DNA of 64,000 bases. It comes from Gammaproteobacteria bacterium (lineage in GTDB: Bacteria; Pseudomonadota; Gammaproteobacteria; UBA4575). Within the stretch, counting starts at the first letter, position 1; each line of letters opens with the position of its first letter. The notes under the pieces were generated by a model. The model had not been told where the DNA came from. It saw nothing but the letters and a program-made list of their open reading frames with translations, and searched no databases. Positions 7,303 through 49,318 of the stretch are shown piece by piece. The DNA lies in contig OY759361.1 in NCBI GenBank assembly GCA_963662355.1, positions 1,865,668-1,929,667 on the forward strand, given 5' to 3'. The translations under genes and the position numbers were made by a program.

Positions 7303-8010
7303 ATGCAGATTGTTCCGGTACTTGACCTATCTAAAGGCCTGGTTGTTCATGCAAAAAAAGGAATCCGGAGACATTATAGGCCAATACAATCATCCTTATG
7401 CCCTACTGCCTATCCTGTAGGTGTTGTCCAAAATTTCATGGAGTTGTTTGACTTTCACACGCTTTATATTGCTGATCTGGATGCCATAGCGCTGCAGGGC
7501 CACAATGCAGATGTCGTTCAGGGTATCTGTGTTGAGTACCCAGAACTCGAAATATGGCTGGATACTGGGCCTTCGTTAATTAGTCACTACCTTGATAATC
7601 CAATCACTCCCTCGCTGCGAATAATCCTATCTACAGAATCCTTGCACTCCGCATCAATCTTAATTTCACTGAGAAATGCCTACCGGGATCATCGCTTTGT
7701 ACTTTCTCTTGATTACAAATCAAATTCCGTACTAGGATCACAGGAAATCATGCAGGAAAGAGATTCATGGCCATCAGATATAGTGGTTCTAAACCTGGAT
7801 CATGTAGGCACTTGCAGCGGAGTGAACTTCCCAGCCATACCGAACCAGCAGACATTATTTGCTATGCACAAAATTTACTATGGTGGCGGAATCAGAAATT
7901 ATGCTGATTTGCTGCAGCTGAAAAATCTGGGTGCTGCAGGTGCCTTGCTTTCCACAGCATTGCATGAAAAAACGGTTACCAAAACTGAACTGCAGTTGTT
8001 CAACCGATAA
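7303..8010 (+). CDS. HisA/HisF-family (beta/alpha)8-barrel protein associated with H4MPT biosynthesis
   Basis: 235-aa ORF. N-terminal MQIVPVLDLSKGLVVHAKKG resembles the HisA/HisF phosphate-binding start. It is the only plus-strand gene in the island. Confidence 0.55.
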   Translation: MQIVPVLDLSKGLVVHAKKGIRRHYRPIQSSLCPTAYPVGVVQNFMELFDFHTLYIADLDAIALQGHNADVVQGICVEYPELEIWLDTGPSLISHYLDNPITPSLRIILSTESLHSASILISLRNAYRDHRFVLSLDYKSNSVLGSQEIMQERDSWPSDIVVLNLDHVGTCSGVNFPAIPNQQTLFAMHKIYYGGGIRNYADLLQLKNLGAAGALLSTALHEKTVTKTELQLFNR

Positions 8011-9220
8011 TTTTTAGACTATCTCGTCTGCTCTGGTGCAACAATCTGCGCAATCGAGACTTGCCCAATTCATCCGAGGTGAAGTGTCCCAACAAGGCAT
8101 TGCGCCCTCGCTCCTGCAACTCACGCAGGCTAGGGCCGGTATAACAGCAGTACGAATGCTCTGTCTCAAAAATCTGCAGTTCCACAAGTCCTGGCAAATA
8201 TTCAATCAGCATTTCCCATATGTAGATACTCAATAGCTCGGTACTGGACCGCCAACTCAACTCGGCACTAACATAATTCAGAGTTTGGTGATCTAGTTCA
8301 TCAATCACTTTTTGGCTAACAATTCGTTTCAAATACCCATAATCCGCAACAAAGCCTGTAAGCGCATCGATTTGGTCCTCAACTTTCACGCTCATGGCGT
8401 AATGACCACCATGCAAGTTTACGCATTTCCCTGGGTGGTCAGTGATAAAATGTGCTGAATCAAACACCAGTTCCTTGACAACGGTTGCCCGATCATGCGA
8501 CTTAAAAAATCTCTCACATGCAGCAGGTATCTTTTCCAAGTACTCAGCTATCACTTCCAGTAAACGTGATGTGTCCTTGCGAGTTTCGCTTCTCATCAAA
8601 AGTCCATTTTCATGTACCGAGGCGTCAAGCCCTTTCAGGCAGACCTGATAATTCTTTTTCAGGTGGTCGCTGACCCTGTTTGCATCCTTGCAGTCCGGAA
8701 AATCAATAAACAGATATCCTGCATGCATCTCGCCAATATGTGCGATGAGTATCGTGATTTGCTGCAAAAATGACCCTGCAGATAATTGTGTGATTTCGGA
8801 AGGCACCCAAATACTGGGGATTTTTAGGCTGTTTCTGGCAATCACGCGGTGTGTTGCATTTTCATACATATATTCCTGCCTGAATTGAAACCCCAGAGAC
8901 CGCAATGATTCCAGATACCAGAGCAACTGTTCGAGTCTACGCACCCCAAGTGAAATCATCGTGAATTTGCCTTGCTGCACCATGGCCCGTGCCATTCCTA
9001 GACCCTTCAGAATATCCAGTGTATTCCGGCCAACTTTTCTGTCCGGCCTCCAGTAAGAAGAAATGTCATCCGCCTGATTAATCTGATCCGGGCTCAGCAC
9101 CAAATCCAGAGGCAGGTGATGACGTAAGGCATACTCTTGCAACGTCAAACCGCTACAAGCCAATAGATGCTCATTCGTCAAACTATTGCCAACATCTTCA
9201 TGACAATCAAGACATTGCAT
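8000..9220 (-). CDS. two-domain protein: uncharacterised N-terminal domain fused to a 6-pyruvoyl-tetrahydropterin synthase (PTPS/QueD)-like C-terminal domain
   Basis: 406-aa ORF. Residues about 240-360 carry PTPS-like motifs (VFDSAHFI...GKCVNLHGGHYAMSVKVE, ELSWRSSTE). PTPS paralogues can act as dihydroneopterin aldolase in pterin-branch biosynthesis. Confidence 0.55.
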   Translation of the reverse strand: MQCLDCHEDVGNSLTNEHLLACSGLTLQEYALRHHLPLDLVLSPDQINQADDISSYWRPDRKVGRNTLDILKGLGMARAMVQQGKFTMISLGVRRLEQLLWYLESLRSLGFQFRQEYMYENATHRVIARNSLKIPSIWVPSEITQLSAGSFLQQITILIAHIGEMHAGYLFIDFPDCKDANRVSDHLKKNYQVCLKGLDASVHENGLLMRSETRKDTSRLLEVIAEYLEKIPAACERFFKSHDRATVVKELVFDSAHFITDHPGKCVNLHGGHYAMSVKVEDQIDALTGFVADYGYLKRIVSQKVIDELDHQTLNYVSAELSWRSSTELLSIYIWEMLIEYLPGLVELQIFETEHSYCCYTGPSLRELQERGRNALLGHFTSDELGKSRLRRLLHQSRRDSLKIIG

Positions 9221-9340: not shown

Positions 9341-9868
9341 TCAGAAGCCTTTGAATGGATGCTCTGCACTGTCCTTTTGCGCAACCACTGCTGAGGCTTT
9401 GGGCTCGTCTTTGACAGCACGTTCCAAAGATTCTTTCACAGCCTTGTAGTTATTTTCATAGATAGCTTCATTGTCTTTTGCTTCCCAGTGAATGAAAACA
9501 CCTACACATACGAAAACGTCATCCGCTTCGTCTGCAGGAATAGTGCCATCTTCAACACTGTCTGCTACAGCTTTAGCGACCGCCACTTGTGCAGGACCAA
9601 ACATCTGTACAGCTTGGTTTGCACCCTTGATAGTCACTTTGTTGAACATCATGGTGTTAGGCTTACATGGCAAATTAGGAGCAATCACAGCCAGCAAAGT
9701 GGAAAAACCGTCCTTATTGTTAACCAAGCCATTACAAAAAGCAGTTTCAACGGCAGAGCCACGCGGGCCAATCAATAAATCGATATGCGCGATTTCTGCC
9801 ATTGTGCCGGAAGGATCATTATCATTAACGAGTGATTCTCCGACCATTACTTTGTTAATCAATGCCAT
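9341..9868 (-). CDS. fae: formaldehyde-activating enzyme (5,6,7,8-tetrahydromethanopterin hydro-lyase)
   Basis: 175-aa ORF co-linear with Fae ([14 protein letters not shown]...[17 protein letters not shown]...); strong downstream terminator. Confidence 0.85.
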
Positions 9869-11819: not shown

Positions 11820-12773
11820 CTAGGAAAAGGATTTTGCAAGCAGGTCAGGCGCCAGATTTCCACCCCTGAAGGTTCTACCGCTATCAACCGAAGTGACTGC
11901 AACCCAGGCAGGACTGAACAGCATGGGATCAATTTTGAAAAAGTCATACCCACAGTCTTTGAGAATCCTAGCAAATGGTTTGCCATAATCGGGCGATGAA
12001 CTTGATGGAAGATCCAGTGCAAGTTTTTCCGCACGTGTATCGTCCCCTTGGACAAACAGGTGCACTCGTCCAGCAAACAAGATTGCTGTATTGGTACGCT
12101 CCATAGCTGTCACAAAATCGGGTACTGGTGGAGAAAGTGGTGCACTTGCAGAGCCGTCCAGCACATCATCCAGAGGAAACCCTAGTGTATGAACCTTGTG
12201 CATGGCAACTTCCAGCACTCTGGAAACTACCTGGACATTACCTGCAATCGAACGGGTCGGAGTCAGAATGAAGGTCAGGGCAGCCGGAGTCAATCTGCAT
12301 GTCTCAGCAATCCTGTTAATCAGTGCAACAGGTGGCAACTGATCTACCTCAAGTACAAACGTTGCGCTGTCACAAGTATCCTCATAGCCCAAATCTTCAA
12401 AAAGGGACTCTTTTCGCGCTATAGCACGGCCCGGACCTGATCCCAAGGCATGAAATTTTTCATGTGACAGACTCCAGCCCGCATACTGGCTGGCAAGGCA
12501 TGCCAGAACCGGATTACACGTATGTACATGCAAGGAAAGTGGCCAGTCACTCACAGCCGCTGTATGGCAAAGCGTTACTTTTCCCAAGCCCCCCATACAG
12601 ATTTCACCAATCACCCTGCCAGCTTCAAGCCCACCTGCGCAATCTATACCTGCATCGATATATTTCGCACCATTACTGAACTCACCCACGATGACTCTCA
12701 AGGCGTCACTTTTATCAATTAGCTCCTGAACTAACGGCTTGGCCAATTGGTTCACACTTACATTTTGCATCAT
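11820..12773 (-). CDS. mch: methenyltetrahydromethanopterin cyclohydrolase
   Basis: 317-aa ORF, Mch length and pattern (MMQNVSVNQLAKPLVQEL...); sits between mptN-like and the ATP-grasp gene next to mtdB, as in methylotroph islands. Confidence 0.8.
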   Translation of the reverse strand: MMQNVSVNQLAKPLVQELIDKSDALRVIVGEFSNGAKYIDAGIDCAGGLEAGRVIGEICMGGLGKVTLCHTAAVSDWPLSLHVHTCNPVLACLASQYAGWSLSHEKFHALGSGPGRAIARKESLFEDLGYEDTCDSATFVLEVDQLPPVALINRIAETCRLTPAALTFILTPTRSIAGNVQVVSRVLEVAMHKVHTLGFPLDDVLDGSASAPLSPPVPDFVTAMERTNTAILFAGRVHLFVQGDDTRAEKLALDLPSSSSPDYGKPFARILKDCGYDFFKIDPMLFSPAWVAVTSVDSGRTFRGGNLAPDLLAKSFS

Positions 12774-20270: not shown

Positions 20271-21089
20271 CTACCGTGAAAAAAGCAGAATTTCACCTCT
20301 ATTGAGTTCAATCCCGTCTCCACTGTAGCGTCTGTATTTACCGTTCAGATGTTGATCCGTAATTTTATTTTCAAACCCATTTTCCTGTAGCCTGATCAAG
20401 TAAAGACGCAAAAATAAGGGCTGATATTTACACGAAAATTCAAAGCTAGGCAACATCGGGGCATCTTCAAAGCAAACAACAGTTCCCCGTATCATACCGG
20501 CACCTGCACGAACACCCATTTTGCCCATGACAATGACAGTGCCAGCCCGCATATTCACTGCTGTAAAATCTCCTGCATCCCCACCAATTGCAATCAGTCC
20601 ACGCCTCATGGAATTACCAATTTCGTTTTTAGCATCTCCATGAATAAAGATTTCCCCGCCTGTAATACCTATTGCCTGCCCTCTGAACGCGCTGCCAATC
20701 ATGTGCCCCGCATTACCCTTGACAACAATACGCCCCCCTGACATTTCAGGCCCGACCCAATCCGAGGCATTACCTTTGACCAGTATCTCCCCACCTGACA
20801 TGCCAATGCCAACATGCATGCCTACATTACCCTCAATGGTAATGCTCCCGGCGGACATGCCTGCGCCTATCATCTTTATCTTACCTAAATCGCCTTCCAG
20901 TAAAATATCGGGAACCCCCTTACCTGTGACTTTGAAAAAATCGCCTATTTTCGCCTTGATATTTCCATGCAGAACCGGCAAGTGTTCAATACCAAGCTCC
21001 GACAGCCCGGCAATTGCAACCGGACTGATTGCTTCTGCCTCCAAAGGCACATCAGGCTGAGTATGCAGGCGCAGAAATGTCGTAGTCAT
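20271..21089 (-). CDS. fhcC: formyltransferase/hydrolase complex subunit C (FwdC homologue)
   Basis: 272-aa ORF made of repeated G-x-x-G-x-x beta-helix units (GNVGMHVGIGMSGGEILVKGNA...) typical of FwdC/FhcC. Confidence 0.8.
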   Translation of the reverse strand: MTTTFLRLHTQPDVPLEAEAISPVAIAGLSELGIEHLPVLHGNIKAKIGDFFKVTGKGVPDILLEGDLGKIKMIGAGMSAGSITIEGNVGMHVGIGMSGGEILVKGNASDWVGPEMSGGRIVVKGNAGHMIGSAFRGQAIGITGGEIFIHGDAKNEIGNSMRRGLIAIGGDAGDFTAVNMRAGTVIVMGKMGVRAGAGMIRGTVVCFEDAPMLPSFEFSCKYQPLFLRLYLIRLQENGFENKITDQHLNGKYRRYSGDGIELNRGEILLFSR

Positions 21090-21113
21090 GATATCTTACT
21101 TGATATAAAAATT

Positions 21114-22013
21114 TTAAGTATTTGATTCTTTTATTATATTATGCAAATAAAACTTATACTTCCCAAGTTCACCACCATAATTTCCAGCCGTGATCATCAT
21201 GACCCCTTTTCCTGCAGCAGCATGCATACCACGGCGCATTGCCTCTTTCACAGCTTCCTCATTCAATCCATCAGCGACAATTTCATAAACAGCTTCCACA
21301 TTTTCCGGAAGAACTCCCTTGCTGGAAATCGAGCCCAAGGTTGGGCAATAAGCATCATTGGTAGATGCAATCATGGACTTGTACCGGGCACCTATTTTGC
21401 TTCCGGAACCTACCACGCCTTGTGGAAATGGCAGAAATACACCAGCAACTTCGCGCATCGCATTGCTTGCAGCAGTGGCTGCCTGTAATGCAGTATATTT
21501 GTTTGTGCCAAGAATAATCAGGTTCCCGCCCCCCACAGCTGGCTGTATCCCAAATGTATCCTCTATCAGAAACTCTCCCTCCATAACAGGAATGCGCCAG
21601 ATTCTACGGCCACCAATGACCTTACTGATCTGGTAACCATCACCAAAGAAACGTAATTTACCACCTACTGAAACAGTTTTTTCAGACTCCAGTCCGTTAT
21701 ATGCTGCGGTTGTGGGACAGGTCATTACACATTGGCCAATCCTGTCAATGAGCTGACCAGCAATAGTCTTACTACTCATTGTAAACAGCAATACGCTGAC
21801 TCCAGGACGATGATCAGGCGTGTCTTCTTTACGAATCTCACACTCTACAGCCGCCTCAAGCTTGCAACGAATAACTGAAGTAGCAAAACCTGTCATAGAT
21901 GCTGCAGCTGCACGTGCCCACTGTTTGGTATCTGCAGTAATGACTACACGGGCACCCCACATTTTAAAGGCTTCAGCAAATGTATCGACAATTTCCGTTT
22001 TTTGAATCTTCAT
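21114..22013 (-). CDS. fhcD: formylmethanofuran:tetrahydromethanopterin formyltransferase
   Basis: 299-aa ORF (MKIQKTEIVDTFAEAFKMWGARVVITA...), Ftr family; 4-nt overlap with fhcA. Confidence 0.8.
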   Translation of the reverse strand: MKIQKTEIVDTFAEAFKMWGARVVITADTKQWARAAAASMTGFATSVIRCKLEAAVECEIRKEDTPDHRPGVSVLLFTMSSKTIAGQLIDRIGQCVMTCPTTAAYNGLESEKTVSVGGKLRFFGDGYQISKVIGGRRIWRIPVMEGEFLIEDTFGIQPAVGGGNLIILGTNKYTALQAATAASNAMREVAGVFLPFPQGVVGSGSKIGARYKSMIASTNDAYCPTLGSISSKGVLPENVEAVYEIVADGLNEEAVKEAMRRGMHAAAGKGVMMITAGNYGGELGKYKFYLHNIIKESNT

Positions 22014-23707
22014 GATTTTGGATGAGTCGGAATCTCTTCATGATCATGCAGGTAATCATCACTGATCGCATAATTACTAAACCTGACTGAGTAATAGTCC
22101 TCAAAAAACGGCTCTATCTCTGCTGCAATATCTTCATTATATCCCGGTTTTGAATGTAGGATTTTACCCTTGTGATCGGTGGCAAATTCATGGTCATTGA
22201 TGACAGTGATTCCGTCTTTAATTACGTAACGGGGTGCATTGAACATTTTCTCCTTATCATCTTCTTCCGTGTAGACGGTTATATCTGCATCTGCACCTAC
22301 TCCAAGATGACCTTTATTCATCAAACCCAATGCTCTAGCCGGCCCGGCACGCGTAATGATTGCAATCTCGTTCAATGTGTACTCACGGTCGAGCTCAAGC
22401 AGTACGGTCTTATCAACTGCTTTTTGGTTCAGGTGTTTTAATGCCTCTTTTCGATATGCACTATCCATCAACAGTTTGATTAATTTCGGATAGTTCATGA
22501 AAGAGCCACCATTGGGGTGATCTGTAGACAGCAGTACTCGCCACGGATCCTTGGACATCAAAAATAACTCTAGCCCCATTGCCCATTGCAAAGTGTGTGT
22601 GTAGATACTTTCCTGATAGGAAAATGGGATGATCCCGCAACCACTTTCACACTCCGTGTCTGCATTTACCCACTTATCAAACTTAACGTTGCGTAGCATC
22701 CAAGCCAGTGGAGCATCTGCAGTCATTGCTGTCGCTTTACCAAACATGACCTGACCCACATCAGCTGTAATATTTTCATGATCATTAATGTAATCAATGA
22801 TCTCTCTGGCACCAGATACAGGATTTTTATTCAGTTCACCGCCAAAACTGTGAAACTGGATGTGAGCCATATGGACACGTCGACCCTGTGCGGCTTTCAT
22901 AGTGTCCAGCGTCGTACTGATATTCCCGCTGTGACCCAGATTGTTACAGTGGATATGGGGAGGGTGAGGCAACCCCAATTCGTGTGCAGCCTCAATAAAA
23001 CTTTCCATGACATGGACAGGTGTGATGTCGTAATGATCAATACTCTCATTCACATCCGTGATATTTGCATTTTTCCGACCTTTCCAGAGTTCGTCACTCC
23101 CGGTATTCACCAGTTTGACCGTGTATGCATGAACCGAGTTAACCCACCATGCAATTGCCTCCTTGAATTCATTTTTTCGCCCCTCTTTTAATAGCTTGTA
23201 CAAGAATGCATTATTGCCTAGTAATACATAAAAGCCTTTGTCAATCACCGGGGTGTCATCAAGTTCTTCAAGTACATGTCTTGCAGTAATCGGAGGAACT
23301 GCTGCCTCCATAGCCGTGGTATAGCCCATAGTGGCGTAACGATAACCTGTTGCAAAAGTCGAAGGTACAATACCGCCTGTCCCAGAACGGGTAACTGCAG
23401 TTTTGGGATGAACATCCAGGCGATGATCTTCTGGCATCAATTTACGGGCAAGGTTCACTTTAGGTCCTGCAATGTGGCAATGAATATCGATTGCCCCTGG
23501 CATCACTACCATTCCATGTGCATCAATCTTGGTTACAGATTTTGATACGGAATCTACGATCTTTCCATCCCTGACACAAATATCCTGTACATCTCCATTG
23601 ATATGATTGGCAGGATCGTATACACGACCGTTCACGATTTTCAATTCAGATGGCATATTCGGCAATCTCGATATATAACCACCGCCACCTGGTTTGATGG
23701 TCGGCAA
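22010..23707 (-). CDS. fhcA: formyltransferase/hydrolase complex subunit A (amidohydrolase, FwdA homologue)
   Basis: 565-aa ORF with metal-dependent amidohydrolase motifs (GAIDIHCH...). Confidence 0.8.
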   Translation of the reverse strand: MPTIKPGGGGYISRLPNMPSELKIVNGRVYDPANHINGDVQDICVRDGKIVDSVSKSVTKIDAHGMVVMPGAIDIHCHIAGPKVNLARKLMPEDHRLDVHPKTAVTRSGTGGIVPSTFATGYRYATMGYTTAMEAAVPPITARHVLEELDDTPVIDKGFYVLLGNNAFLYKLLKEGRKNEFKEAIAWWVNSVHAYTVKLVNTGSDELWKGRKNANITDVNESIDHYDITPVHVMESFIEAAHELGLPHPPHIHCNNLGHSGNISTTLDTMKAAQGRRVHMAHIQFHSFGGELNKNPVSGAREIIDYINDHENITADVGQVMFGKATAMTADAPLAWMLRNVKFDKWVNADTECESGCGIIPFSYQESIYTHTLQWAMGLELFLMSKDPWRVLLSTDHPNGGSFMNYPKLIKLLMDSAYRKEALKHLNQKAVDKTVLLELDREYTLNEIAIITRAGPARALGLMNKGHLGVGADADITVYTEEDDKEKMFNAPRYVIKDGITVINDHEFATDHKGKILHSKPGYNEDIAAEIEPFFEDYYSVRFSNYAISDDYLHDHEEIPTHPKS

Positions 23708-26728: not shown

Positions 26729-27358
26729 TTATCCGGGCTTTGAGAAAAACTGGCCCAGCGTGCTTTCATACAGCCAGCCAAAGGATTTCTTAAACTGCTC
26801 AAGAAGATATTCTGAGGGTGTTTGCGGCTTAACCTTCACCATTTGCGGATGGCCGGATAGTAAGCCTATTAAAAACTTTGTCATTGCAGGTGAATCCCAC
26901 TTGCGCTCCCCTACTGCCTTATAGATAAGCCTGCCCTCTGGATTTACCAAGAATGTCGTAGGCAAACCCAGTACCCCCCAGTTTGCAAGACCCATATCCT
27001 GGTCAATCAGAATCGTAAATTCGACTGGCACTTGATCTAAAAACTTTTCCACACCACTCAGGCTTGGCCCTACATGTATGCCAATCACTTCAAGACCGTT
27101 ACTGCGCATCCTGCTGTGCAAATTATCTAGGGCCGGCATCTCGTTTCTACAGGGCGCACACCATGTAGCCCAAAAGTTAAGCAATACAAATTTTCCCTGG
27201 AAATCATTCAGACTGATACTTGCCCCGTTTACAGCATCCAGCCTGAAACCTTCTGCCTCAGGCTTGCCTGCTATCGGCTCCATGGGTGCTCGAGCCAATA
27301 CCCCGTAAGCAAACAAATACATAAACAAAAACAGACACCAACCCAGTATTTTAATCAT
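26729..27358 (-). CDS. periplasmic thiol:disulfide oxidoreductase, TlpA/ResA-like thioredoxin
   Basis: 209-aa ORF with N-terminal signal/anchor, WCAPC active site, TlpA-like fold and about 40-aa C-terminal extension. Confidence 0.75.
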   Translation of the reverse strand: MIKILGWCLFLFMYLFAYGVLARAPMEPIAGKPEAEGFRLDAVNGASISLNDFQGKFVLLNFWATWCAPCRNEMPALDNLHSRMRSNGLEVIGIHVGPSLSGVEKFLDQVPVEFTILIDQDMGLANWGVLGLPTTFLVNPEGRLIYKAVGERKWDSPAMTKFLIGLLSGHPQMVKVKPQTPSEYLLEQFKKSFGWLYESTLGQFFSKPG

Positions 27359-27582: not shown

Positions 27583-28932
27583 TTAAAATTCTAGCTTATT
27601 CTCGTGGGCCCAATTGGGGTCGTCAGCACTGATATCACCTATAGGCGCAGCAAATGCATCTTCTACCAAAATACTGACGTTACCACCAGTTAGAGACTTC
27701 AAGAAAGCAGCCAGATCATCGATCTCAGTATCAGTCAGGTTCAGCGGCCGTATCAGGGGACTGAGTAATTCGTTGGGTATTCCGCCCTGATTATAAAATT
27801 CAATGACGTCACGCAAGGTCAACAGAGAGCCATTGTGCATGTATGGAGCTGTCAATGCGACATTCCGTAAAGAGGGTGTGCGGTATTTCCATCGGTCATT
27901 CGGATCTTCTGTAACTTCATACAAGCCTAGATCATTTTCTCTGGGTCTTGAAACAGACTTGATGACACTTGTGTCCAGTTCCGTATACACACCAGGTGCC
28001 AGCTGCACCCTTGTGGTTTCAGGCTCTACACCCATCGAGTCCTCAAAACCCACCCCTGTATTATGTAGCTGGTCGTCACTGAACAAAGCAAATCCTTCTT
28101 GAATCTGATGACAGACACTGCAGGAACCCTTGCCTGCAAACACCTTGAATCCACGCTTGACCTGTTCGCTGACTGCATCTTCGTCTTTGCCGTAATACCA
28201 AAGATCAAAGGGCGAATTAGCTGCATTCAAGGTTCGCTGGTAGCTAGCAAGTGCCATGCCGATCGTTTCCATGGTCGGACCTCGACCTTCAAAAGCTCCT
28301 TCAAACAAATTGTCATATTCGCGGATAGCCATGATTTTGTTAATGACATAACCAATGGATGGATTAGCCATCTCATTTCGTGCCAACAACGGAGACCAGA
28401 CCTGTTGCTCCAGAGTAGATTCACGCCCATCATGAAAAATCTTTTCCAAATATGCAGAATTAAAAACGGTAGGCGTGTTACGTTTTACAGTACGCCCTTC
28501 AACGCCAACGGCAGTCTTAATTTCATTGTTGGCAAATCCTTGCTCAGGGATATGGCATATAGCACAAGAAAATGTGTCATTGATTGACAGGCGACGGTCA
28601 AAAAAAAGCTTTCTTCCTAGCTGTATCTTCTTGGTAGTAACAGGATTATCGGCTGGAACAGGAACAGGAGGTAACCCTAACGGGGGGCTACTGACAAAAT
28701 CGATCAGTCTAGCTTCCTTTCCTATGCGCTGTTGTAAATCCAAAGAATTCGTTTGGTAATCAGCAGACTCATAACCCTCCTTGTTATCTCCCGGGCCAAA
28801 CACTGCATGGTTCGTGCTCTCAACCAAGTCTGCGGTGAAACCCCTTAAGGCATACAGTACAAGAGCCAAGATGATAGCACTGAAAATAATCGGGACTTTT
28901 ATATTCTTAATTGATCTATTTATGAAATGCAT
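27583..28932 (-). CDS. mauG: di-haem cytochrome c peroxidase family protein (MauG-like)
   Basis: 449-aa ORF with N-terminal TM helix and two CxxCH haem motifs (CAICH, CSVCH). The start overlaps the stop of the upstream SCO1 gene (ATGA). Confidence 0.7.
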   Translation of the reverse strand: MHFINRSIKNIKVPIIFSAIILALVLYALRGFTADLVESTNHAVFGPGDNKEGYESADYQTNSLDLQQRIGKEARLIDFVSSPPLGLPPVPVPADNPVTTKKIQLGRKLFFDRRLSINDTFSCAICHIPEQGFANNEIKTAVGVEGRTVKRNTPTVFNSAYLEKIFHDGRESTLEQQVWSPLLARNEMANPSIGYVINKIMAIREYDNLFEGAFEGRGPTMETIGMALASYQRTLNAANSPFDLWYYGKDEDAVSEQVKRGFKVFAGKGSCSVCHQIQEGFALFSDDQLHNTGVGFEDSMGVEPETTRVQLAPGVYTELDTSVIKSVSRPRENDLGLYEVTEDPNDRWKYRTPSLRNVALTAPYMHNGSLLTLRDVIEFYNQGGIPNELLSPLIRPLNLTDTEIDDLAAFLKSLTGGNVSILVEDAFAAPIGDISADDPNWAHENKLEF

Positions 28933-29678
28933 TATGAATCTATTCGGCCAGGCAATACTCCTTCCTCAATAAGAAGTGTTTTAATGTCGACAGTGACCAA
29001 TTGATCATGTAAAAACGAAACACTGTATTCCTGTCGAATATTTTTCGACCTGTCAATCAGGAAGGCACGCAAAACATGCGCCATAGTCCCCTTGTATTTC
29101 CCGCTTTCATCATACTCCTTGATCACCATCTGCCCGTATTGCCTGATAATCGGCCCTAACGTCTCCTCGGAAGCAGTGGTTAAAAATAACCATTGCGGAT
29201 CTCCATCCTCAAACCCTTCGCCATACAGTCTCATGACTTCAGGAGTATCGTGTTCAGGATCAAAGCTTACACTGATCAACCGGATCGTTTTCGCAAGCTC
29301 CGGGTCATCCTTGAAACGTTCCTTGACTTTATAGAATACAGCAGTCGCCAATGGACAGCCGTTGAAATCTGTGCAACTGCTATAGATGAATGTGAGAAGT
29401 ACGATTTTGTCTCCCATCAACTCACCTAGCTCCAGTTCTTTTCCATCCGGGCCCAAAACAGACCCACCTCCTGCAACGCCTACCCTCGGCAGAGCATATG
29501 ACCCCGGCTTAGGCACTTCATAGGGTAAACTGGCCTTCCAGCCATCTGCCATGATCCTGACTTCTGCACGCGCTGCATGTGAACCCGAGAGATATGAATC
29601 GCGATCAGTATCGCGGTCACAGCCGGGTCCAGCTAGCAGGACACCGCACAACACCAAACCTGTGAAAAATTTTTTCAT
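28932..29678 (-). CDS. SCO1/SenC-family copper chaperone
   Basis: 248-aa lipoprotein-like ORF (signal peptide + LAGPGC), thioredoxin fold with a Cys pair CTDFNGCP in place of the canonical CxxxC, conserved distal His. Confidence 0.7.
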   Translation of the reverse strand: MKKFFTGLVLCGVLLAGPGCDRDTDRDSYLSGSHAARAEVRIMADGWKASLPYEVPKPGSYALPRVGVAGGGSVLGPDGKELELGELMGDKIVLLTFIYSSCTDFNGCPLATAVFYKVKERFKDDPELAKTIRLISVSFDPEHDTPEVMRLYGEGFEDGDPQWLFLTTASEETLGPIIRQYGQMVIKEYDESGKYKGTMAHVLRAFLIDRSKNIRQEYSVSFLHDQLVTVDIKTLLIEEGVLPGRIDS

Positions 29679-29778
29679 CTACAACAACTACTCCAGAAAC
29701 GACAAGGCCGCCTCACAGGCGGCCTTGTTCCAGTTCTAATTCTGGCTGATGATTACATCATTGTAAACAAGCCGCTTT

Positions 29779-31155
29779 TTAATGTTGTGACAGCAGCGTA
29801 CCCGTGGAGTTCGGTTTTTGCGAATACAGTGAGTATGCTCCAAAACGCATCTGATGGGCACGGCCAAGTTTCAGAGCGTAGAAATCTACCGTAAACTCAT
29901 GAACAAGCTCCTGTCCGTTCCATGAAAACAATTTGAAAAACTGTTCGTCCATGTCACCGGTTTTATCCCAGTTTCCTAACAAAGATGACGTGAAGTAAGT
30001 ACGTTTCCCATCCCAACTCTGTGAAATCATGTTCACTTGTGAACCAATCTCATGCTCATATGTCTGCTTTGGATTAAATGGGTCAGAAATATCAAAATAT
30101 CGCGTCTTGCCATCCATGAAGGTCTGTACCCAAAGACCCTTATCATCTGCTGTAATTGAGATATCCACAGGCAACGGCACTTTAGAGGGATCACCTATAT
30201 CCCCTACTGCCTTGGCTTGCCATTCACCTGCATCGTCTTCATAGATCAACCAGATTTTTGAAGTCAAGGCCGTAGTGGTCAAACAGTAGTTATGATTTGA
30301 ACCCCATGCGCAACGAATTTCCAAAGGCGCCCCAGGAACTTCAAATACTTTTTTCGGTTTACGGGTATGCAAGTCCCACACTACCACAGTATTACCAAAC
30401 CGTTTCATGGCCTCTGCATCTGAAAGCATCTTGCTGAAATCCATCATGTAGTTGGACCAGCCCGTAAACGAGGAGGTAATCATCACGTTTCGACGTGGCA
30501 AAGCCCGCACATCGTAACCATATCCGTCAGCAATATTTCCCACCTTCTTAGCACCACGCAGATTTTCATCTGTCGGCATCCAATGTGCAGCAACAAATTC
30601 ACCTTCATTGGTAAATTCTGCAATTCCGGTCCTGCCTCCATGATCCACATTATTGGATAAAGCACTGACCATGATTCGGCCAGGTAAGGCATACATTGTG
30701 TGAGGGCCAACCATGCCTCCAGTCTTCTCTACAAAATCAGTAATAACTTTATGCAAGACGGGTTTACTAGGATTGGTGTGTACATCAAAAATAAAAATCT
30801 TGTTGCTGTCCAGACCACCACCAAACAGATAACGACGATCATCCGTTAAACCGGAGTGGTGCGCTTCATTACGTCCTCCTACAGAAAGCACATTGACAAC
30901 TTTCCCGTAGTTGACTGAATCTGGATTAACAGAAATGGTAACCAGCTTATCCTGCTCATCACCAAGACCTTCTACACCCAATGTCCAAACGTACACATAG
31001 TCTTCTTGGCCAACGATTTTTGCCATATAGGGAGACATACAGGTCTCATCGGCCATAGCAGTAGAGTGAAAGCCAATTGCAGATGCCAGTACGACCCATA
31101 AAAATGCAATGCTGCCTTGCACCCACTTAGCTTGTGATTTCGCCATTTTCTTCAT
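29779..31155 (-). CDS. mtoX: selenium-binding-protein (SBP56) family methanethiol oxidase
   Basis: 458-aa ORF with signal peptide and SBP56 beta-propeller architecture including His-rich sites (EAHHSG...). The gene order SBP56 - SCO1 - MauG is the one reported for mtoX in Hyphomicrobium. Confidence 0.75.
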   Translation of the reverse strand: MKKMAKSQAKWVQGSIAFLWVVLASAIGFHSTAMADETCMSPYMAKIVGQEDYVYVWTLGVEGLGDEQDKLVTISVNPDSVNYGKVVNVLSVGGRNEAHHSGLTDDRRYLFGGGLDSNKIFIFDVHTNPSKPVLHKVITDFVEKTGGMVGPHTMYALPGRIMVSALSNNVDHGGRTGIAEFTNEGEFVAAHWMPTDENLRGAKKVGNIADGYGYDVRALPRRNVMITSSFTGWSNYMMDFSKMLSDAEAMKRFGNTVVVWDLHTRKPKKVFEVPGAPLEIRCAWGSNHNYCLTTTALTSKIWLIYEDDAGEWQAKAVGDIGDPSKVPLPVDISITADDKGLWVQTFMDGKTRYFDISDPFNPKQTYEHEIGSQVNMISQSWDGKRTYFTSSLLGNWDKTGDMDEQFFKLFSWNGQELVHEFTVDFYALKLGRAHQMRFGAYSLYSQKPNSTGTLLSQH

Positions 31156-31475: not shown

Positions 31476-32042
31476 ATGCTTAACAATTTACATAGATTTC
31501 ATTTATTTTTTTTATTGATTATTTGCCTTGCTGCCAGCTTGGCTGAAGCCGACAGGGTGGGAGGTGATTTTGAGCTTACCACTCACCAAAACATGCCCTA
31601 CTCACTGGCTAATTCCAGGGGTCAGGTAGTTTTATTGTTCTTCGGCTTTACAAGCTGTCCGGATGTATGCCCTCACACATTAAGTGTCGTTCAAAGCGTA
31701 TTGAACCAATTAGGCTCCAAAGCCCAACAGGTTCAGCCACTGTTCATCACCGTTGACCCCAACCGTGATACGCCAGAAATTTTGAAACATTACCTGGAAT
31801 ATTTTGGCAGCGGTTATATAGGCTTAACCGGGTCTGTTGAGGAGATAGATAAAGTAGTTGGCCAGTTCAGTGCCTTTTACTCATTTGAAGGGAATACTGT
31901 TGAAGGCGCCTACTCTGTCAATCATACTTCCAATTTATATATAATAGACACTGAAGGTGAAGTTGCAAGCATAGTTCCTTATGGTACACCCATGCAGGCA
32001 ATCCTTAGGAGTATTGAGGAATTGCTGCTTAGCAAGTTATAG
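31476..32042 (+). CDS. SCO1/SenC-family copper chaperone (second paralogue)
   Basis: 188-aa ORF with signal peptide and the canonical CPDVCP motif; divergent from mtoX. Confidence 0.75.
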   Translation: MLNNLHRFHLFFLLIICLAASLAEADRVGGDFELTTHQNMPYSLANSRGQVVLLFFGFTSCPDVCPHTLSVVQSVLNQLGSKAQQVQPLFITVDPNRDTPEILKHYLEYFGSGYIGLTGSVEEIDKVVGQFSAFYSFEGNTVEGAYSVNHTSNLYIIDTEGEVASIVPYGTPMQAILRSIEELLLSKL

Positions 32043-32053
32043 CCAGAAGGCCA

Positions 32054-32440
32054 TTATTTGTACTGAATGTAGGCAAAGCGTGGGTCGCTTGGCGTGCCCT
32101 CCAAATCTCCACTGCCTGTACCAGGTTGCCACATTATTACCTCTTCAATTTTCTGAGCCAGTTCAAAGTCCTTATTGGTGACCCCCTTGGCAGCATGATT
32201 CATTAGCTTGCAGATGACAAAAGCATAAGACACCGTGAGGTCAGGATGATGAAAGGCTGCTTCTGCTAAATGTCCAATCGTATTCACTACCATAAGTGTG
32301 CCTTTCCAGCCATGTGTCCTGTACTTTCTACGAATCCATCCATTCTCGTAATACCAAGTAGGCAATTCTTCAGTTAGCCTTTCTTTTATTTGTTCTTCTG
32401 TATAGGTCTGTTCAGATTTGATATCGCGCCACTTCGACAT
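32054..32440 (-). CDS. pterin-4a-carbinolamine dehydratase-like protein
   Basis: 128-aa ORF with the PCD signature ...EAAFHHPDLTVSYAF... Confidence 0.6.
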   Translation of the reverse strand: MSKWRDIKSEQTYTEEQIKERLTEELPTWYYENGWIRRKYRTHGWKGTLMVVNTIGHLAEAAFHHPDLTVSYAFVICKLMNHAAKGVTNKDFELAQKIEEVIMWQPGTGSGDLEGTPSDPRFAYIQYK

Positions 32441-32723: not shown

Positions 32724-33605
32724 TCAGCAGGGCATAGATAAGGTAGCCACTTTTACGACATTTTTCATCAACATGGCCACGGTCATTGGACCCACACCGC
32801 CCGGCACAGGGGTAATCATTGAAGCAACACCTATGGCCTGAGCAAAGTCCACATCTCCTACGAGACAGGTTTTTCCATCCTCTTCAATGCGATTAATCCC
32901 AACATCTATGACGATCGCCCCAGGTTTTATCATGTCTGCCTTAATAAACCGTGCCTGTCCTATCGCCGCAATCAGGATGTCAGCCTGCAGTGTGAAATTC
33001 TCAATATTTTCAGTTCTGGAGTGACACACAGTAACTGTTGAATTGGCATATCTGGCTTTTTGTACCAGCATGTTCATAAGCGGTTTCCCTACAATATTGC
33101 TGCGCCCGACGATAACTACGTGCTTGCCAACAGTTTCAATACCGCTCCTTGAAATCAACTGCGATACCGCATTGGGTGTACAGGAAACCAAGGTATCCAG
33201 TCCGGCAGTCAAGCACCCGACATTATAGGGGTGGAAACCGTCAACATCCTTTTGAGGCGAAATTGCAGCGATGATGTTGTGTTCTCCAATATGGTCAGGC
33301 AAGGGTAACTGGACCAAGATGCCATGCACCTCAGGATTATCATTTAACGTAGTGATCAGCCCGATCAGTTCTGGCTCAGAAATATCCTCTAGAAGGTCAT
33401 GTTGAATCAATCGTATTCCGACTTGCCTTCCTGCTTCCTGCTTGGCTCCCACATAGGCACGAGAAGCAGGATCACTCCCAACCAGGATAACCGCCAGACA
33501 AGGATGCACACCCCGTGATTGCAGCTTGTCTACTTGGCCTTTAACTTCCAGTTGAATTTGTGTGGCAATCGCTTTCCCGTCAATTAGTACTGTCGCCATA
33601 GTCAC
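32724..33605 (-). CDS. folD: bifunctional methylenetetrahydrofolate dehydrogenase/methenyltetrahydrofolate cyclohydrolase
   Basis: 293-aa ORF, FolD co-linear (IDGKAIA...VILVGSDPASRAYV...). Confidence 0.9.
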   Translation of the reverse strand: MTMATVLIDGKAIATQIQLEVKGQVDKLQSRGVHPCLAVILVGSDPASRAYVGAKQEAGRQVGIRLIQHDLLEDISEPELIGLITTLNDNPEVHGILVQLPLPDHIGEHNIIAAISPQKDVDGFHPYNVGCLTAGLDTLVSCTPNAVSQLISRSGIETVGKHVVIVGRSNIVGKPLMNMLVQKARYANSTVTVCHSRTENIENFTLQADILIAAIGQARFIKADMIKPGAIVIDVGINRIEEDGKTCLVGDVDFAQAIGVASMITPVPGGVGPMTVAMLMKNVVKVATLSMPC

Positions 33606-33707
33606 CTCAAATCAATTTAAAACGACAACTGGCCTCTTCATCAGACAATACATCACTACACTTCAGATTCTTTCACAAAAATTACATTTCTTGATTGTAC
33701 CGCAATG

Positions 33708-33740
33708 CAAAAACGGCGAACGTATAGTCCGCCGTTTTCA
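33708..33740 (-). terminator. rho-independent terminator downstream of the EGKCG-repeat gene (bidirectional-looking hairpin)
   Basis: Stem acggcg/cgccgt (33713-33718 / 33730-33735) flanked by A5 on one side and T4 on the other. Confidence 0.5.
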
Positions 33741-33769
33741 CAAAGCTACAGGTAAACCGAAGAGCAGTA

Positions 33770-34222
33770 TTAGCTGCTGTCACTACCTTCTTCGGATTTA
33801 CCTTCCCCGCATTTGCCTTCTCCACACTTGCCTTCCCCGCATTTGCCTTCTTCAGATTTATCCTCTTCAGATTCGCCTTCCCCGCATTTGCCTTCCCCAC
33901 ACTTGCCTTCCCCGCATTTGCCTTCTTCAGATTTATCCTCTTCAGATTCGCCTTCCCCGCATTTGCCTTCCCCACACTTGCCTTCCCCGCATTTGCCTTC
34001 TTCAGATTTATCCTCTTCAGATTCGCCTTCCCCGCATTTGCCTTCCCCACATTTACCTTCCTCGGCTGCACCATGGCTATCAGCTACCATGTACCCGGCT
34101 GACAATTCGGTCATTTGAAACAGGTCTTGATCAGCACTTGCTGTAGAAATTCCAAATGCGCCTGTTGCCAAGACTGCACCAACAGCCACTACCAATGGCT
34201 TTAATTCAGATTTCGCTTTCAT
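33770..34222 (-). CDS. secreted EGKCG-repeat protein (HvfA-like oxazolone/thioamide RiPP-type Cu-metallophore precursor family)
   Basis: 150-aa ORF. Sec signal peptide MKAKSELKPLVVAVGAVLATGAFGISTASA, then 9 EGKCG motifs in three identical 25-aa modules (EGKCG)3-EGESEEDKSE plus a partial fourth. SD-like aggag upstream and a terminator hairpin downstream. Confidence 0.7.
   Translation of the reverse strand: MKAKSELKPLVVAVGAVLATGAFGISTASADQDLFQMTELSAGYMVADSHGAAEEGKCGEGKCGEGESEEDKSEEGKCGEGKCGEGKCGEGESEEDKSEEGKCGEGKCGEGKCGEGESEEDKSEEGKCGEGKCGEGKCGEGKSEEGSDSS
33800..34060. repeat. 75-bp near-perfect tandem repeat, about 3.5 copies (encodes the EGKCG modules); also internal 15-bp sub-repeats
   Basis: Units 33801-33874, 33875-33949 and 33950-34024 are identical except 1 nt. 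A diverged partial copy runs to about 34060. Confidence 0.9.
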
Positions 34223-34727
34223 AAAACTCTCCTAAGGTTTTTTGTTTTCAATCAATTTTTAAGGAACAGAATCTTAAGGATACACATTGCACCATCAGCC
34301 ATTCCTGATTTAGAAAGCTACCGTATACAATTCAGCCAGGTAAACCAAGTATCAAAGTAGCTTAAAATCTCCTTAAGGCTTTACGCATGCATCCCAATCG
34401 ATCACCACAATTTAACATAGTATTATAGTAGTATCACAAGTATATGGCGTCACTTTCTGTACCTGTGGGTAACAGAACTATTTAGTTGCTTATAAGAAAA
34501 TGGCTAGACACATTCATGACTAGAAATCTTAGCTCGACCATACATCTTTTCAACCAGTTACAATGATAACCGCTCGCATCAGGTTCCGTAGTTAGCAGGC
34601 AAACCGGTTTTACCTTAATAGCGGGTTCTCCATGAATAAGGGAAGAACAATTTACCTTCAGCGAAACAAGAAAGAATAGCTTCTCTTTTAAACTGACATC
34701 CTTACAGCCACTCAGTTCCCCATCATA

Positions 34728-35267
34728 ATGGATGAAAAACCTTTTACCATCTGTGGTGTAATTGCAGCAGGATGGAGCCTGGCCGGCCTGCTGCTGTTAC
34801 TTGGATTTGCAATCTGGAGATTATCCCTATACACCATCGAATCTTTGCACATGCCAATGAACTGGATGCACTGGACTGTGTTCATTGGCTTTACGGTCTT
34901 TATGGCACACAGCGAAGGGTATAAAGGATTTCAAAAAAAATTTTCACCGCGATTTGCTGCTCGAACAAAATACTTACTAGCAAACAGTACGGTAACACAA
35001 TGCATTTTTGCACCGCTATTTAGCATGGGCTTTTTCCATGCCCCCAAAAAACGTATTGTCGCTTCTATCTGCCTTACCATCATGATAGTTGTTTTTATTT
35101 TCCTATTTCAATACATCCCCCAGCCATGGAAGGGCTTGCTGGATGCAGGTGTTGTGATTGGATTAATTTGGGGCATGATCTCCACTATCCTGTTCTGCAC
35201 CAAAGCATTTTCAAATGCCGAATACAATTGGGATGCAGAAATTTTAAACATCCACTCCAAGTCGTAA
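34728..35267 (+). CDS. hypothetical 4-TM inner-membrane protein (179 aa)
   Basis: Four clear hydrophobic helices; no motif recognised. Divergent from the EGKCG-repeat gene across a 505-bp intergenic region. Confidence 0.45.
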   Translation: MDEKPFTICGVIAAGWSLAGLLLLLGFAIWRLSLYTIESLHMPMNWMHWTVFIGFTVFMAHSEGYKGFQKKFSPRFAARTKYLLANSTVTQCIFAPLFSMGFFHAPKKRIVASICLTIMIVVFIFLFQYIPQPWKGLLDAGVVIGLIWGMISTILFCTKAFSNAEYNWDAEILNIHSKS

Positions 35268-35322
35268 GCAATTACCAATACTCATCACGAGTAGGCGCAT
35301 ACTGTACATAGGGCAGTGAAGT

Positions 35323-36147
35323 TCAGCTTGTATGAATAGCCCAGGTGACATCGATAGCCTGACGATTTTGCCAAACATCGTGCACACGAAATATTTTTAC
35401 TCCTGCTAACACCCCAAGAGCAGACGTCGCGCATGTTGCCGGCATCCTTGCCCTTGGATTCTCCTGCATTGAAATCTCACCCATAAATCGTTTACGGCTA
35501 GTACCCAGCATCACCGGGTACCCTAGTCCAGTAAACATCTTCAGATCCCGTAGTAATTCCAGGTTATGTTGAGTTCGTTTACCAAACCCAATTCCCGGGT
35601 CGAGTATAATGTTATCTTTTTTTACACCTATATCCTGAGCCTTCTCAGCCCGGCCCAAAAGAAAGTCTGATACTTCTCGGGTGACATTTTCGTAATCAGG
35701 ATGATCCTGCATGGTTGCGGGCTCTCCACGCATGTGCATTAGACAAACAGGAACTTCAGCCACTGCTGCAAGTTTTAATAAACCCATGTCTTCACGGCCC
35801 GCACTCACATCATTCAGCATGGTTGCACCTGCATCCAAGGCCGCGTAGGCAACTTCAGATAAAGTCGTATCAATGCTGATATGGATATGTTCAGGCAACT
35901 CCGCATGCAGACCTGCGATCACATCAATCACCCTGCGCTTTTGCTCTGACGCTCCTACACGAGTGGACCCTGGTCGAGTTGATTCTCCACCTACATCAAT
36001 AATATCTGCACCTTGTTCAACCATTTCTATCCCGCAGGCAATTGCATCTTTGGAAGAAGGGTATACTCCACCATCGGAAAAACTGTCTGGTGTTACATTG
36101 AGCACACCCATCAGAAGTGGCCTTGAATAATCTAAATGCACAGTCAT
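35323..36147 (-). CDS. folP: dihydropteroate synthase
   Basis: Classic FolP motifs LMGVLNVTPDSFSDGG and IIDVGGESTRPG. The ORF as called starts at 36177, but the internal Met at 36147 aligns with FolP N-termini. Confidence 0.85.
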   Translation of the reverse strand: MTVHLDYSRPLLMGVLNVTPDSFSDGGVYPSSKDAIACGIEMVEQGADIIDVGGESTRPGSTRVGASEQKRRVIDVIAGLHAELPEHIHISIDTTLSEVAYAALDAGATMLNDVSAGREDMGLLKLAAVAEVPVCLMHMRGEPATMQDHPDYENVTREVSDFLLGRAEKAQDIGVKKDNIILDPGIGFGKRTQHNLELLRDLKMFTGLGYPVMLGTSRKRFMGEISMQENPRARMPATCATSALGVLAGVKIFRVHDVWQNRQAIDVTWAIHTS

Positions 36148-47782: not shown

Positions 47783-47882
<100 letters not shown>

Positions 47883-48129
47883 GATGCTGATACAGACCGC
47901 TTTATGACTATAACCTAACAGTTTGAATTTTTAAAACACATATGGTTGTCATGAGAATCGACCTGTTGATAGGGTCATCCCCACAGTAAATTATTACAGA
48001 CAGCTTGCAGGCTTATATTTGGCTACCTGATGCGGTACTTGCCGAACATCTCTAACAACTGATGGAATTGCCTGCAGAAACCAGCTTTTTCTGATGCATT
48101 TCAGTTCCATAAAACCATCCTGCAGGAGT

Positions 48130-49226: not shown

Positions 49227-49318
49227 TGGCGGAGAGAGAGGGATTCGAACCCTCGGTGCCCCGTTGAGGACACACTCACTTTCCAGGCGAGCCCGTTCGA
49301 CCACTCCGGCATCTCTCC
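49227..49318 (-). tRNA. tRNA-Ser (anticodon GGA), class II with long variable arm, CCA encoded
   Basis: Reverse complement: GGAGAGATGCCGGAGTGGTCGAACGGGCTCGCCTGGAAAGTGAGTGTGTCCTCAACGGGGCACCGAGGGTTCGAATCCCTCTCTCTCCGCCA. It shows the canonical D-arm, the anticodon loop CUGGAAA, a 15-nt variable arm and the T-arm GGTTCGAATCC. Confidence 0.85.

Follow-up and report, generated by a model that had tools for sequence, protein, structure and literature searches.

The stretch analysed here, referred to as the window, comprises 64,000 nucleotides of contig OY759361.1 (assembly GCA_963662355.1, positions 1,865,668 to 1,929,667 of the forward strand) from a gammaproteobacterium of the UBA4575 lineage, and carries at 33770-34222 on the minus strand an hvfA-like gene that encodes a 150-aa precursor assigned to the HvfA / Buf_EGKCG-oxazolin / captophorin family and contains a coding tandem repeat. 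The gene was delimited from the list of open reading frames (ORFs), from its match to the NCBIfam model NF050137 and from 44 homologs with a conserved N-terminus; an exact-protein look-up found no record of the 150-aa product. A Shine-Dalgarno-like AGGAGA read from the sequence (34228-34233, minus strand) lies 5 nt upstream of the ATG. Codons 1-30 (34133-34222, minus strand) specify a putative Sec-type signal peptide, composed of MKAKSELK / PLVVAVGAVLATGAFGI / STASA and followed by D (in full MKAKSELKPLVVAVGAVLATGAFGISTASA, then D), which was recognised by inspection only from its basic n-region, its 17-residue hydrophobic core and the ASA before the D, and whose hydrophobic core and A-x-A site are kept across 21 aligned homologs; the HvfA-type family has been described as Sec-exported (PMC11252979, PMC12452194). 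The signal peptide is followed, at codons 31-51 (34070-34132, minus strand), by a conserved leader, DQDLFQMTELSAGYMVADSHG, in which the alignment displays the segment FQMTELSAGYMVA with the invariant columns F35, L40, S41, G43, Y44, M45, V46 and A47. The leader motif NPFxMTELSSGYMVA is also found in precursors directly adjoining MNIO genes (L010, L011, L016 and L043), and the remainder of the protein is mostly taken up by the repeat core. AlphaFold, run with the 21-sequence alignment, returned no confident fold for the window protein (pLDDT, its per-residue confidence, 41.8), which is consistent with a flexible, disordered precursor core.

Downstream of the gene, 28 nt past the stop codon, RNA folding located a terminator-like hairpin with a 16-bp stem followed by UUUUU (33706-33742, minus strand). 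The fold of 33690-33775 (minus strand) reached -32.8 kcal/mol (z = -5.6), and none of 200 shuffled sequences was as stable; the long-loop hairpin was not picked up by a consensus promoter/terminator scanner. With this hairpin behind its stop codon, the gene appears to be monocistronic. Promoter-like sites were no commoner than in shuffled sequence, and the 505-nt intergenic region upstream (34223-34727) gave no Rfam match and no convincing sigma-70 promoter, while Rfam on 33000-35500 gave no match at E <= 1. At the DNA level this intergenic region aligns with the sister species L002 and L008 over only ~130 nt.

The repeat core (33789-34061, minus strand) was resolved by Tandem Repeats Finder (TRF) at periods of 15 and 75 and by pentad maps. 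The period-75 array at 33789-34061 contains 3.6 copies with 96% matches (score 504), and a period-15 array of 17.7 copies with 74% matches is nested in it at 33796-34061. A comparison at lag 75 found the sole mismatch across 33801-33976 to be that of 33821 against 33896, so that 33801-34025 consists of three full 75-nt copies with one differing nucleotide, and identity continues over another 26 bases (34026-34051) before the sequence diverges; the 75-nt periodicity thus extends over 33801-34051 with one mismatch and is perfect over 33822-34051. The longest perfect lag run covers 155 positions, against no more than 13 in any of 392 windows of 453 nt drawn at random from the same sequence, which places the repeat far outside chance expectation. 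Read along the gene, unit 1 (33953-34027, minus strand) encodes GESEE DKSEE GKCGE GKCGE GKCGE, unit 2 (33878-33952, minus strand) is identical to it at 75/75 positions, and unit 3 (33803-33877, minus strand) is identical at 74/75, with one synonymous change, GGG to GGA, at 33821.

Each 75-nt unit is made of five 15-nt pentads, three with Cys and two diverged spacers. With T, A and B standing for synonymous spellings of GKCGE, and S1 (GESEE) and S2 (DKSEE) for the acidic spacers, the core is written N0 T A [S1 S2 A B A] [S1 S2 A B A] [S1 S2 A B' A] E1 E2. The protein has 11 Cys, every one in (E/G)GKCG context, grouped 2+3+3+3. The arrangement of head-to-tail, near-identical units with a length that is a multiple of 3 and a 15-nt sub-period is that of a coding variable-number tandem repeat (VNTR). 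A preliminary description of the window had reported a near-perfect 75-bp tandem repeat of three full copies and a diverged partial copy, adding three Cys motifs per unit in frame to a secreted Cys-motif protein, and the TRF and lag-75 results, the composition of the unit (three GKCGE pentads and two spacer pentads), and the ORF list, NF050137 match and pentad map all agree with it.

The repeat also disturbs the reading of the surrounding frames, since five of the six frames are free of stops across it. Long overlapping ORFs arise for this reason at 33562-34146 (plus strand; 194 aa, overlapping the start of folD, with no family match), at 33813-34118 (plus strand) and at 33682-34074 (minus strand), whereas homologs and a family match were obtained only for the frame 33770-34222 (minus strand). 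The other-strand and alternative-frame ORFs, which exist only through the stop-free repeat and match no family, were rejected as real genes, as the preliminary description had already proposed for the plus-strand ORF and an alternative minus frame. One relative, P0170 (132 aa, P0005 cluster), ends in a C-terminus ...SKSERVNVAKASVAKINLNKAEATAEVNFQIVT that is shifted into an alternative open frame of the repeat; it results from a sequencing error or, alternatively, from a true frameshift, which would be tolerated as the other frames lack stops.

The family assignment of the product, which had been the missing piece in an otherwise correct observation and main interpretation, is drawn from its profile match and architecture. 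NF050137 ("HvfA family oxazolone/thioamide-modified RiPP metallophore", a KCGExKCG domain model, RiPP being a ribosomally synthesised and post-translationally modified peptide) matched in four stretches with 81.1 bits against a cutoff of 19.5, and signal peptide, NPFxMTELSSGYMVA leader and EGKCG cassettes are the architecture common to the relatives. Pfam found no family in the window protein at E <= 1, including the DUF2282 of the bufferins Buf1; for the methanobactin precursor MbnA, which would be expected beside mbnBC, there was no NCBIfam match and no MNIO in the window. Metallothionein, bufferin DUF2282 and methanobactin identities were rejected, as no model matched. The protein is thus placed by profile and architecture in the HvfA (oxazolin / Buf_EGKCG / captophorin) precursor family; the secreted Cys-motif protein described previously stands, and its metal-binding character is refined from that of a generic Cys-thiolate binder to that of a predicted HvfA/captophorin RiPP precursor. 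The locus adds to the known captophorin family and stays within the frame of the existing captophorin literature.

The length of the repeat varies among near-identical strains. The flanks of the window were compared with five contigs (L001, L168, L169, L170 and L171) that are ~97-99.8% identical, and four shorter layouts were observed besides that of the window (150 aa, 11 Cys, N0 T A [S1 S2 A B A]x2 [S1 S2 A B' A] E1 E2), with lengths of 80, 90 and 100 aa and 3 or 5 Cys: N0 T B A B' A E1 E2 in L001 (90 aa, 5 Cys; flanks 99.7-99.8% identical over 20 kb and gap-free outside the repeat); N0 A A [S1 S2 A B' A] E1 E2 in L168 and L169 (100 aa, 5 Cys; flanks 99.3-99.6% over 12 kb and 98.3-99.0% over 1.5 kb, respectively); N0 A T [S1 S2 A B' A] E1 E2 in the 567-nt scaffold L170 (100 aa, 5 Cys; flanks 97.4-98.2%); and N0 A B' A E1 E2 in the scaffold L171 (80 aa, 3 Cys; 99.5% downstream and 97.9% upstream). 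The L001 allele is 180 nt shorter than the window, and L168, L169 and L170 carry one 75-nt unit against three, unit counts on the short-read-like contigs L168-L171 being lower bounds. The repeat is the only indel relative to the window in L001, L168, L169 and L170, including long contigs that span 12-20 kb. Overall, flank identity amounts to 99.3-99.8% on the contigs that extend over 6-20 kb (L001, L168 and L171) and to 97-99% on the short L169 and L170. All alleles are in frame and differ by 30, 60, 150 or 180 nt, and because all these differences are multiples of 15 nt, the slipping register is read from the sequences as the 15-nt pentad, and a whole 75-nt unit is one of the steps it allows. 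The copy-number-variable locus that had been predicted is therefore borne out by alleles of 3, 5 and 11 Cys in near-identical strains, and the 75-bp unit proposed as its variable step holds for L168-L170 and is narrowed to the pentad for the series as a whole.

That these differences are assembly artefacts, produced by collapse or mis-joining of a perfect repeat with one real copy number, appears very improbable. The names of L168 and L169 are of the MEGAHIT-style k141 type and L170 and L171 are short-read-like scaffolds, de Bruijn assemblers can shorten a 230-nt perfectly periodic tract, and the coverage of L001 is only 6x. However, L001 lies on a 1.2-Mb contig whose name suggests a long-read assembler, and its spacer-less order T B A B' A could not be made by collapse of the window array. 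The one-unit alleles start with A A or A T and the window with T A, so they are distinct sequences; the chromosome-scale L002 (307x, circular) and L008 differ in cassette number; and every allele keeps the reading frame.

The L002 and L008 pair of a sister species, with 95.9% nucleotide identity, have 3+3 and 3+3+2 Cys, respectively. Among clusters formed at 90% identity the members range from 80 to 150 aa, those of the clusters other than the window's from 80 to 132 aa. The perfect lag run of the window is the second longest among ~165 family genes, whereas the L172/P0009 lineage has synonymously scrambled repeats with a run of 25, its representative and two further members read being 106 aa and the cluster table giving 106 aa for 10/10 members. 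Purity of the repeat thus tracks instability. In a rival view the units are kept alike by continuing gene conversion or by selection at the nucleotide level instead of being recent duplicates, and copy number is functionally neutral; the pentad types shuffled between alleles (T/A swaps at positions 1-2) do resemble conversion. Unit number nevertheless differs between near-identical strains, conversion and slippage are not mutually exclusive, and neutrality cannot be judged from sequence; this view is given even less credence than that of assembly artefacts.

Very pure arrays are not confined to the window gene. L122 (2995-3648) encodes 22 Cys with a 212-nt perfect run of period 48, L015 (10001-10432), whose MNIO gene adjoins it, contains a 45-nt unit in six identical copies, and L118 is likewise listed among the family members with such arrays; recent repeat expansion seems, from these sequences, to recur across the HvfA family. 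Three hvfA-like genes stand in tandem in L126 (3001-4718). In other relatives (P0020, P0024, P0032-P0038 and L007 at 8001-8456) an EF-hand Ca-binding module is placed between the EGKCG cassettes behind the same signal peptide and leader, all of these corresponding to the Buf_EGKCG|EF-hand chimaeras noted in PMC12452194. A scan of JGI metagenomes yielded 80 family members, the best of them 56% identical, and no further alleles of the window species.

In most relatives the precursor gene is coupled to its presumptive maturation genes. A scan of GTDB detected 80 loci encoding relatives, with an MNIO gene (MbnB_TglH_ChrH) directly downstream in 67 and a DUF2063/NGO1945_C partner also present in 65, as determined by Pfam on representatives and subsequent tblastn mapping. 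The window gene is stand-alone: linkage to an MNIO (PF05114) or to a DUF2063/PME-1 partner (PF09836) was not detected within the 64 kb, and no DoxX gene was found near it. Stand-alone precursor genes do occur in the Buf_EGKCG/oxazolin family, and genomes with a precursor and no MNIO are rare (PMC12452194). Starting 2.6 kb downstream of the gene lies a cluster of mtoX, SCO1/SenC and a MauG-like (MauG/MbnH-like di-haem) gene (27583-31155, minus strand), assigned by NF052453 for MtoX (760 bits against a cutoff of 650) and by Pfam for SCO1 and CCP_MauG. Between the two are folD (32724-33605), a pterin-4a-dehydratase-like gene (32054-32440) and a second, divergent SCO1 (31476-32042), all on the minus strand, and a TlpA-like thioredoxin follows the cluster on the same strand (26729-27358). 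MtoX is a periplasmic Cu-dependent methanethiol oxidase whose linkage to SCO1 and mauG is known (PMC5739008). The order from hvfA through folD to mtoX is kept in at least four species of a clade with ~2-Mb genomes (L001, L002/L008, L172 and L173). A general link between hvfA-like genes and mtoX was not supported, as none of the fetched loci outside the clade and L007 had mtoX nearby; the L007 copy lies ~6 kb from a pterin4a-SCO1-mtoX cluster.

Taken together, these observations are probably best explained by a stand-alone HvfA-family precursor with a variable core, modified by a distal MNIO and binding Cu(I). The Sec signal and the conserved leader, a probable docking site for an HvfC-type partner, would be followed by a disordered acidic core with one (E/G)GKCG per Cys pentad. 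An HvfB-type MNIO and a DUF2063 partner encoded elsewhere in the genome would turn each Cys into a 5-thiooxazole before Sec export, a change expected to remove 4 Da per Cys and to give absorbance near 302-305 nm, and the modified precursor would then be exported to the periplasm, where it may bind Cu(I) at approximately one ion per pair of modified Cys and serve in copper buffering or handling. Replication slippage or unequal recombination would gain or lose whole pentads in frame, and alleles with 3, 5 and 11 Cys might accordingly provide ~1-2, 2-3 and 5-6 Cu(I) sites. By analogy with characterised members of the family, it is inferred that a distal MNIO modifies the protein, that the product binds Cu(I) and that its capacity scales with copy number, and the earlier proposal that copy number tunes metal capacity appears a reasonable one on the same grounds.

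The analogy is drawn mainly from Haemophilus influenzae, in which the AEGKCGEGKCG motifs of HvfA contain six Cys that are all modified by HvfB (an MNIO) together with HvfC, with ~1 Cu(I) bound per modified Cys pair (PMC11252979). What was first described as an oxazolone/thioamide modification is now assigned as 5-thiooxazole, and the class has been named captophorins; processing requires at least two adjacent EGKCG pentads, and the seven sites of fontiphorin accommodate up to four Cu (PMC12668002, bioRxiv 10.64898/2026.07.17.739211). The window protein has adjacent EGKCG runs of 2, 3, 3 and 3, so every Cys sits in a run of two or three pentads and matches this substrate need. Because the EGKCG context is strictly kept and the leader is common to precursors adjoining maturase genes, the sequences argue that recognition by HvfBC is still under selection.

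Several observations weigh against this explanation. The strict HvfA equivalog model NF050188 was not reached (50.5 against 95 bits), with only the repeat region aligned, and the window protein is accordingly classed on its profile scores as an HvfA-family member and not as the ortholog-level equivalent of HvfA from nontypeable H. influenzae (NTHi). The window array is known from assembled sequence and not from reads, and perfect repeats can collapse on short-read-like contigs such as L168-L171. An MNIO or HvfC homolog was absent from the 64-kb window in Pfam scans and in tblastn searches with 5 MNIO and 4 HvfC queries (best E = 0.34); MNIO and DUF2063 genes were also not found within 10 kb of the ortholog in L001, L002, L008, L172 and L173; and with two MNIO queries (from L015 and L011) contigs of the clade were not among the best 120 of 8000 matches.

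The same negative results can be read as signs that the protein works unmodified, the reduced genomes of ~2 Mb having lost hvfBC, and that thiolates together with carboxylates bind copper or another metal in a periplasmic buffer or chaperone, possibly for MtoX. Neither the 64 kb nor the surroundings of any ortholog yielded a maturase gene, hvfA keeps its place two genes upstream of mtoX-SCO1-mauG in four to five species, and PMC12452194 notes rare genomes with precursors and no MNIO, whose peptides might act unmodified. However, the exact EGKCG context and the leader common to precursors adjoining MNIO genes are strictly kept, as continued recognition by HvfBC would demand and simple thiolate binding would not; precursors lacking a genomic MNIO are rare in the literature (PMC12452194); and the MNIO searches, covering the best 120 of 8000 matches, cannot show absence. 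Function of the unmodified protein is therefore considered unlikely, and modification by a distal MNIO is preferred.

Differential features were observed when the window protein was compared with the known systems. HvfA/oxazolin (NTHI1441 of NTHi), fontiphorin FonA and gonophorin NgoA likewise have a Sec signal, a short N-terminal region and a C-terminal EGKCG core, in which adjacent EGKCG pairs are the unit of modification and of Cu(I) binding (PMC11252979, PMC12668002). Relative to HvfA, the window protein has the leader given above without the Cys38/Cys43 disulfide pair, its Cys are arranged in triplet cassettes with acidic ESEEDKSE spacers in a 25-aa unit, and its gene lies outside any hvfABC(X) operon. 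Leprevost et al. (2025) described ~2,000 Buf_EGKCG/oxazolin precursors with a signal peptide, 31-506 aa in length and with a variable number of EGKCG repeats (PMC12452194). The window protein resembles their type 1 as a signal-peptide precursor with EGKCG repeats that stands alone, and differs by its 25-residue unit with three EGKCG and the absence of a confident AlphaFold fold; the variation among near-identical strains of the window clade goes beyond what that study reports. In Microbulbifer, MmrA has a conserved leader and a Cys number of five to eight across the genus (PMC12538549), and with the Microbulbifer locus L030 the window protein shares 57% identity over its residues 27-139. In contrast to mmrA, which always adjoins mmrB and mmrC, the window gene stands alone and covers a wider range of 3-11 Cys, found among strains that are ~97-99.8% identical in their flanks.

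Methanobactin (MbnA/MbnBC) is similar in its Cys-derived heterocycle ligands for Cu(I) and in its MNIO-family enzyme, but MbnA lacks both a Sec signal and EGKCG repeats; it is a short leader-core peptide that bears oxazolone-thioamide groups, and it is encoded in a separate operon and induced when copper is scarce (PMC12668002). The coding VNTRs and contingency repeats of bacterial surface and secreted proteins share with the window gene the in-frame, ~100% identical units and the differences in length between near-identical strains. The units of the window gene are multiples of 3 and permit no frameshift on/off switching, and a change in their number would vary metal sites and not antigenicity or adhesion length.

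Captophorin/oxazolin precursors are recently recognised and very widespread copper-binding peptides whose physiological role is unclear, and this locus is notable for the high purity of its array, for the series of alleles documented among near-identical strains, and for a stand-alone gene whose place beside a cluster for a copper enzyme is conserved. The strains provide a natural series with 3, 5, 5 and 11 modifiable Cys in essentially one genetic background, which is a ready test of whether copper capacity depends on how many EGKCG pentads are present, and they indicate that repeat number in the HvfA family can shift within strain divergence and not only between species. The position by the cluster of the Cu-dependent methanethiol oxidase leads to a concrete hypothesis on the client enzyme, and the locus lends itself to testing if precursors of this kind depend on a distal maturase. 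A more far-reaching proposal is that in these ~2-Mb C1- and methanethiol-oxidising gammaproteobacteria a stand-alone captophorin long kept beside the mtoX-SCO1-mauG cluster serves as a periplasmic copper store or buffer for MtoX, with the hypermutable array as a contingency device offering 3-11 ligand sites, perhaps without MNIO modification if hvfBC is lacking; as a whole this proposal must be regarded as speculative and rather less probable than the action of an unmodified protein.

On the other side of the hvfA-like gene, a multi-pass membrane protein of 179 aa that neither Pfam nor NCBIfam matched is encoded divergently (34728-35267, plus strand) and is kept at the same position in the clade, with 100% identity in L001 and ~76% in L002 and L008; it may have a functional link to hvfA. 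Beyond it are folP, an MBL hydrolase, lepA, degP and rseB/rseA/rpoE. A small signal recognition particle (SRP) RNA next to dnaX and recR (47795-47890, minus strand; RF00169, 56 bits) and a tRNA-Ser (GGA) at 49227-49318 (minus strand) are the only Rfam or ARAGORN matches in the window. Elsewhere, a stand-alone HvfA-like gene was observed on the 1.95-Mb chromosome of a metagenome-assembled genome (L028, 10560-12115), where the genes behind it are a 196-aa ORF and an Oxidored_molyb gene (MsrP/YedY-like) in place of an MNIO; such minority gene clusters are mentioned in PMC12452194.

The left 25 kb of the window (25-25079) represent a tetrahydromethanopterin (H4MPT)/methanofuran one-carbon (C1) island for H4MPT-dependent formaldehyde oxidation, including 4-HFC-P synthase (25-741), Fae (9341-9868), Mch (11820-12773) and the Fhc-type formyltransferase, GXGXG and amidohydrolase subunits (20271-23707). 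Formaldehyde released by MtoX could enter this island directly.

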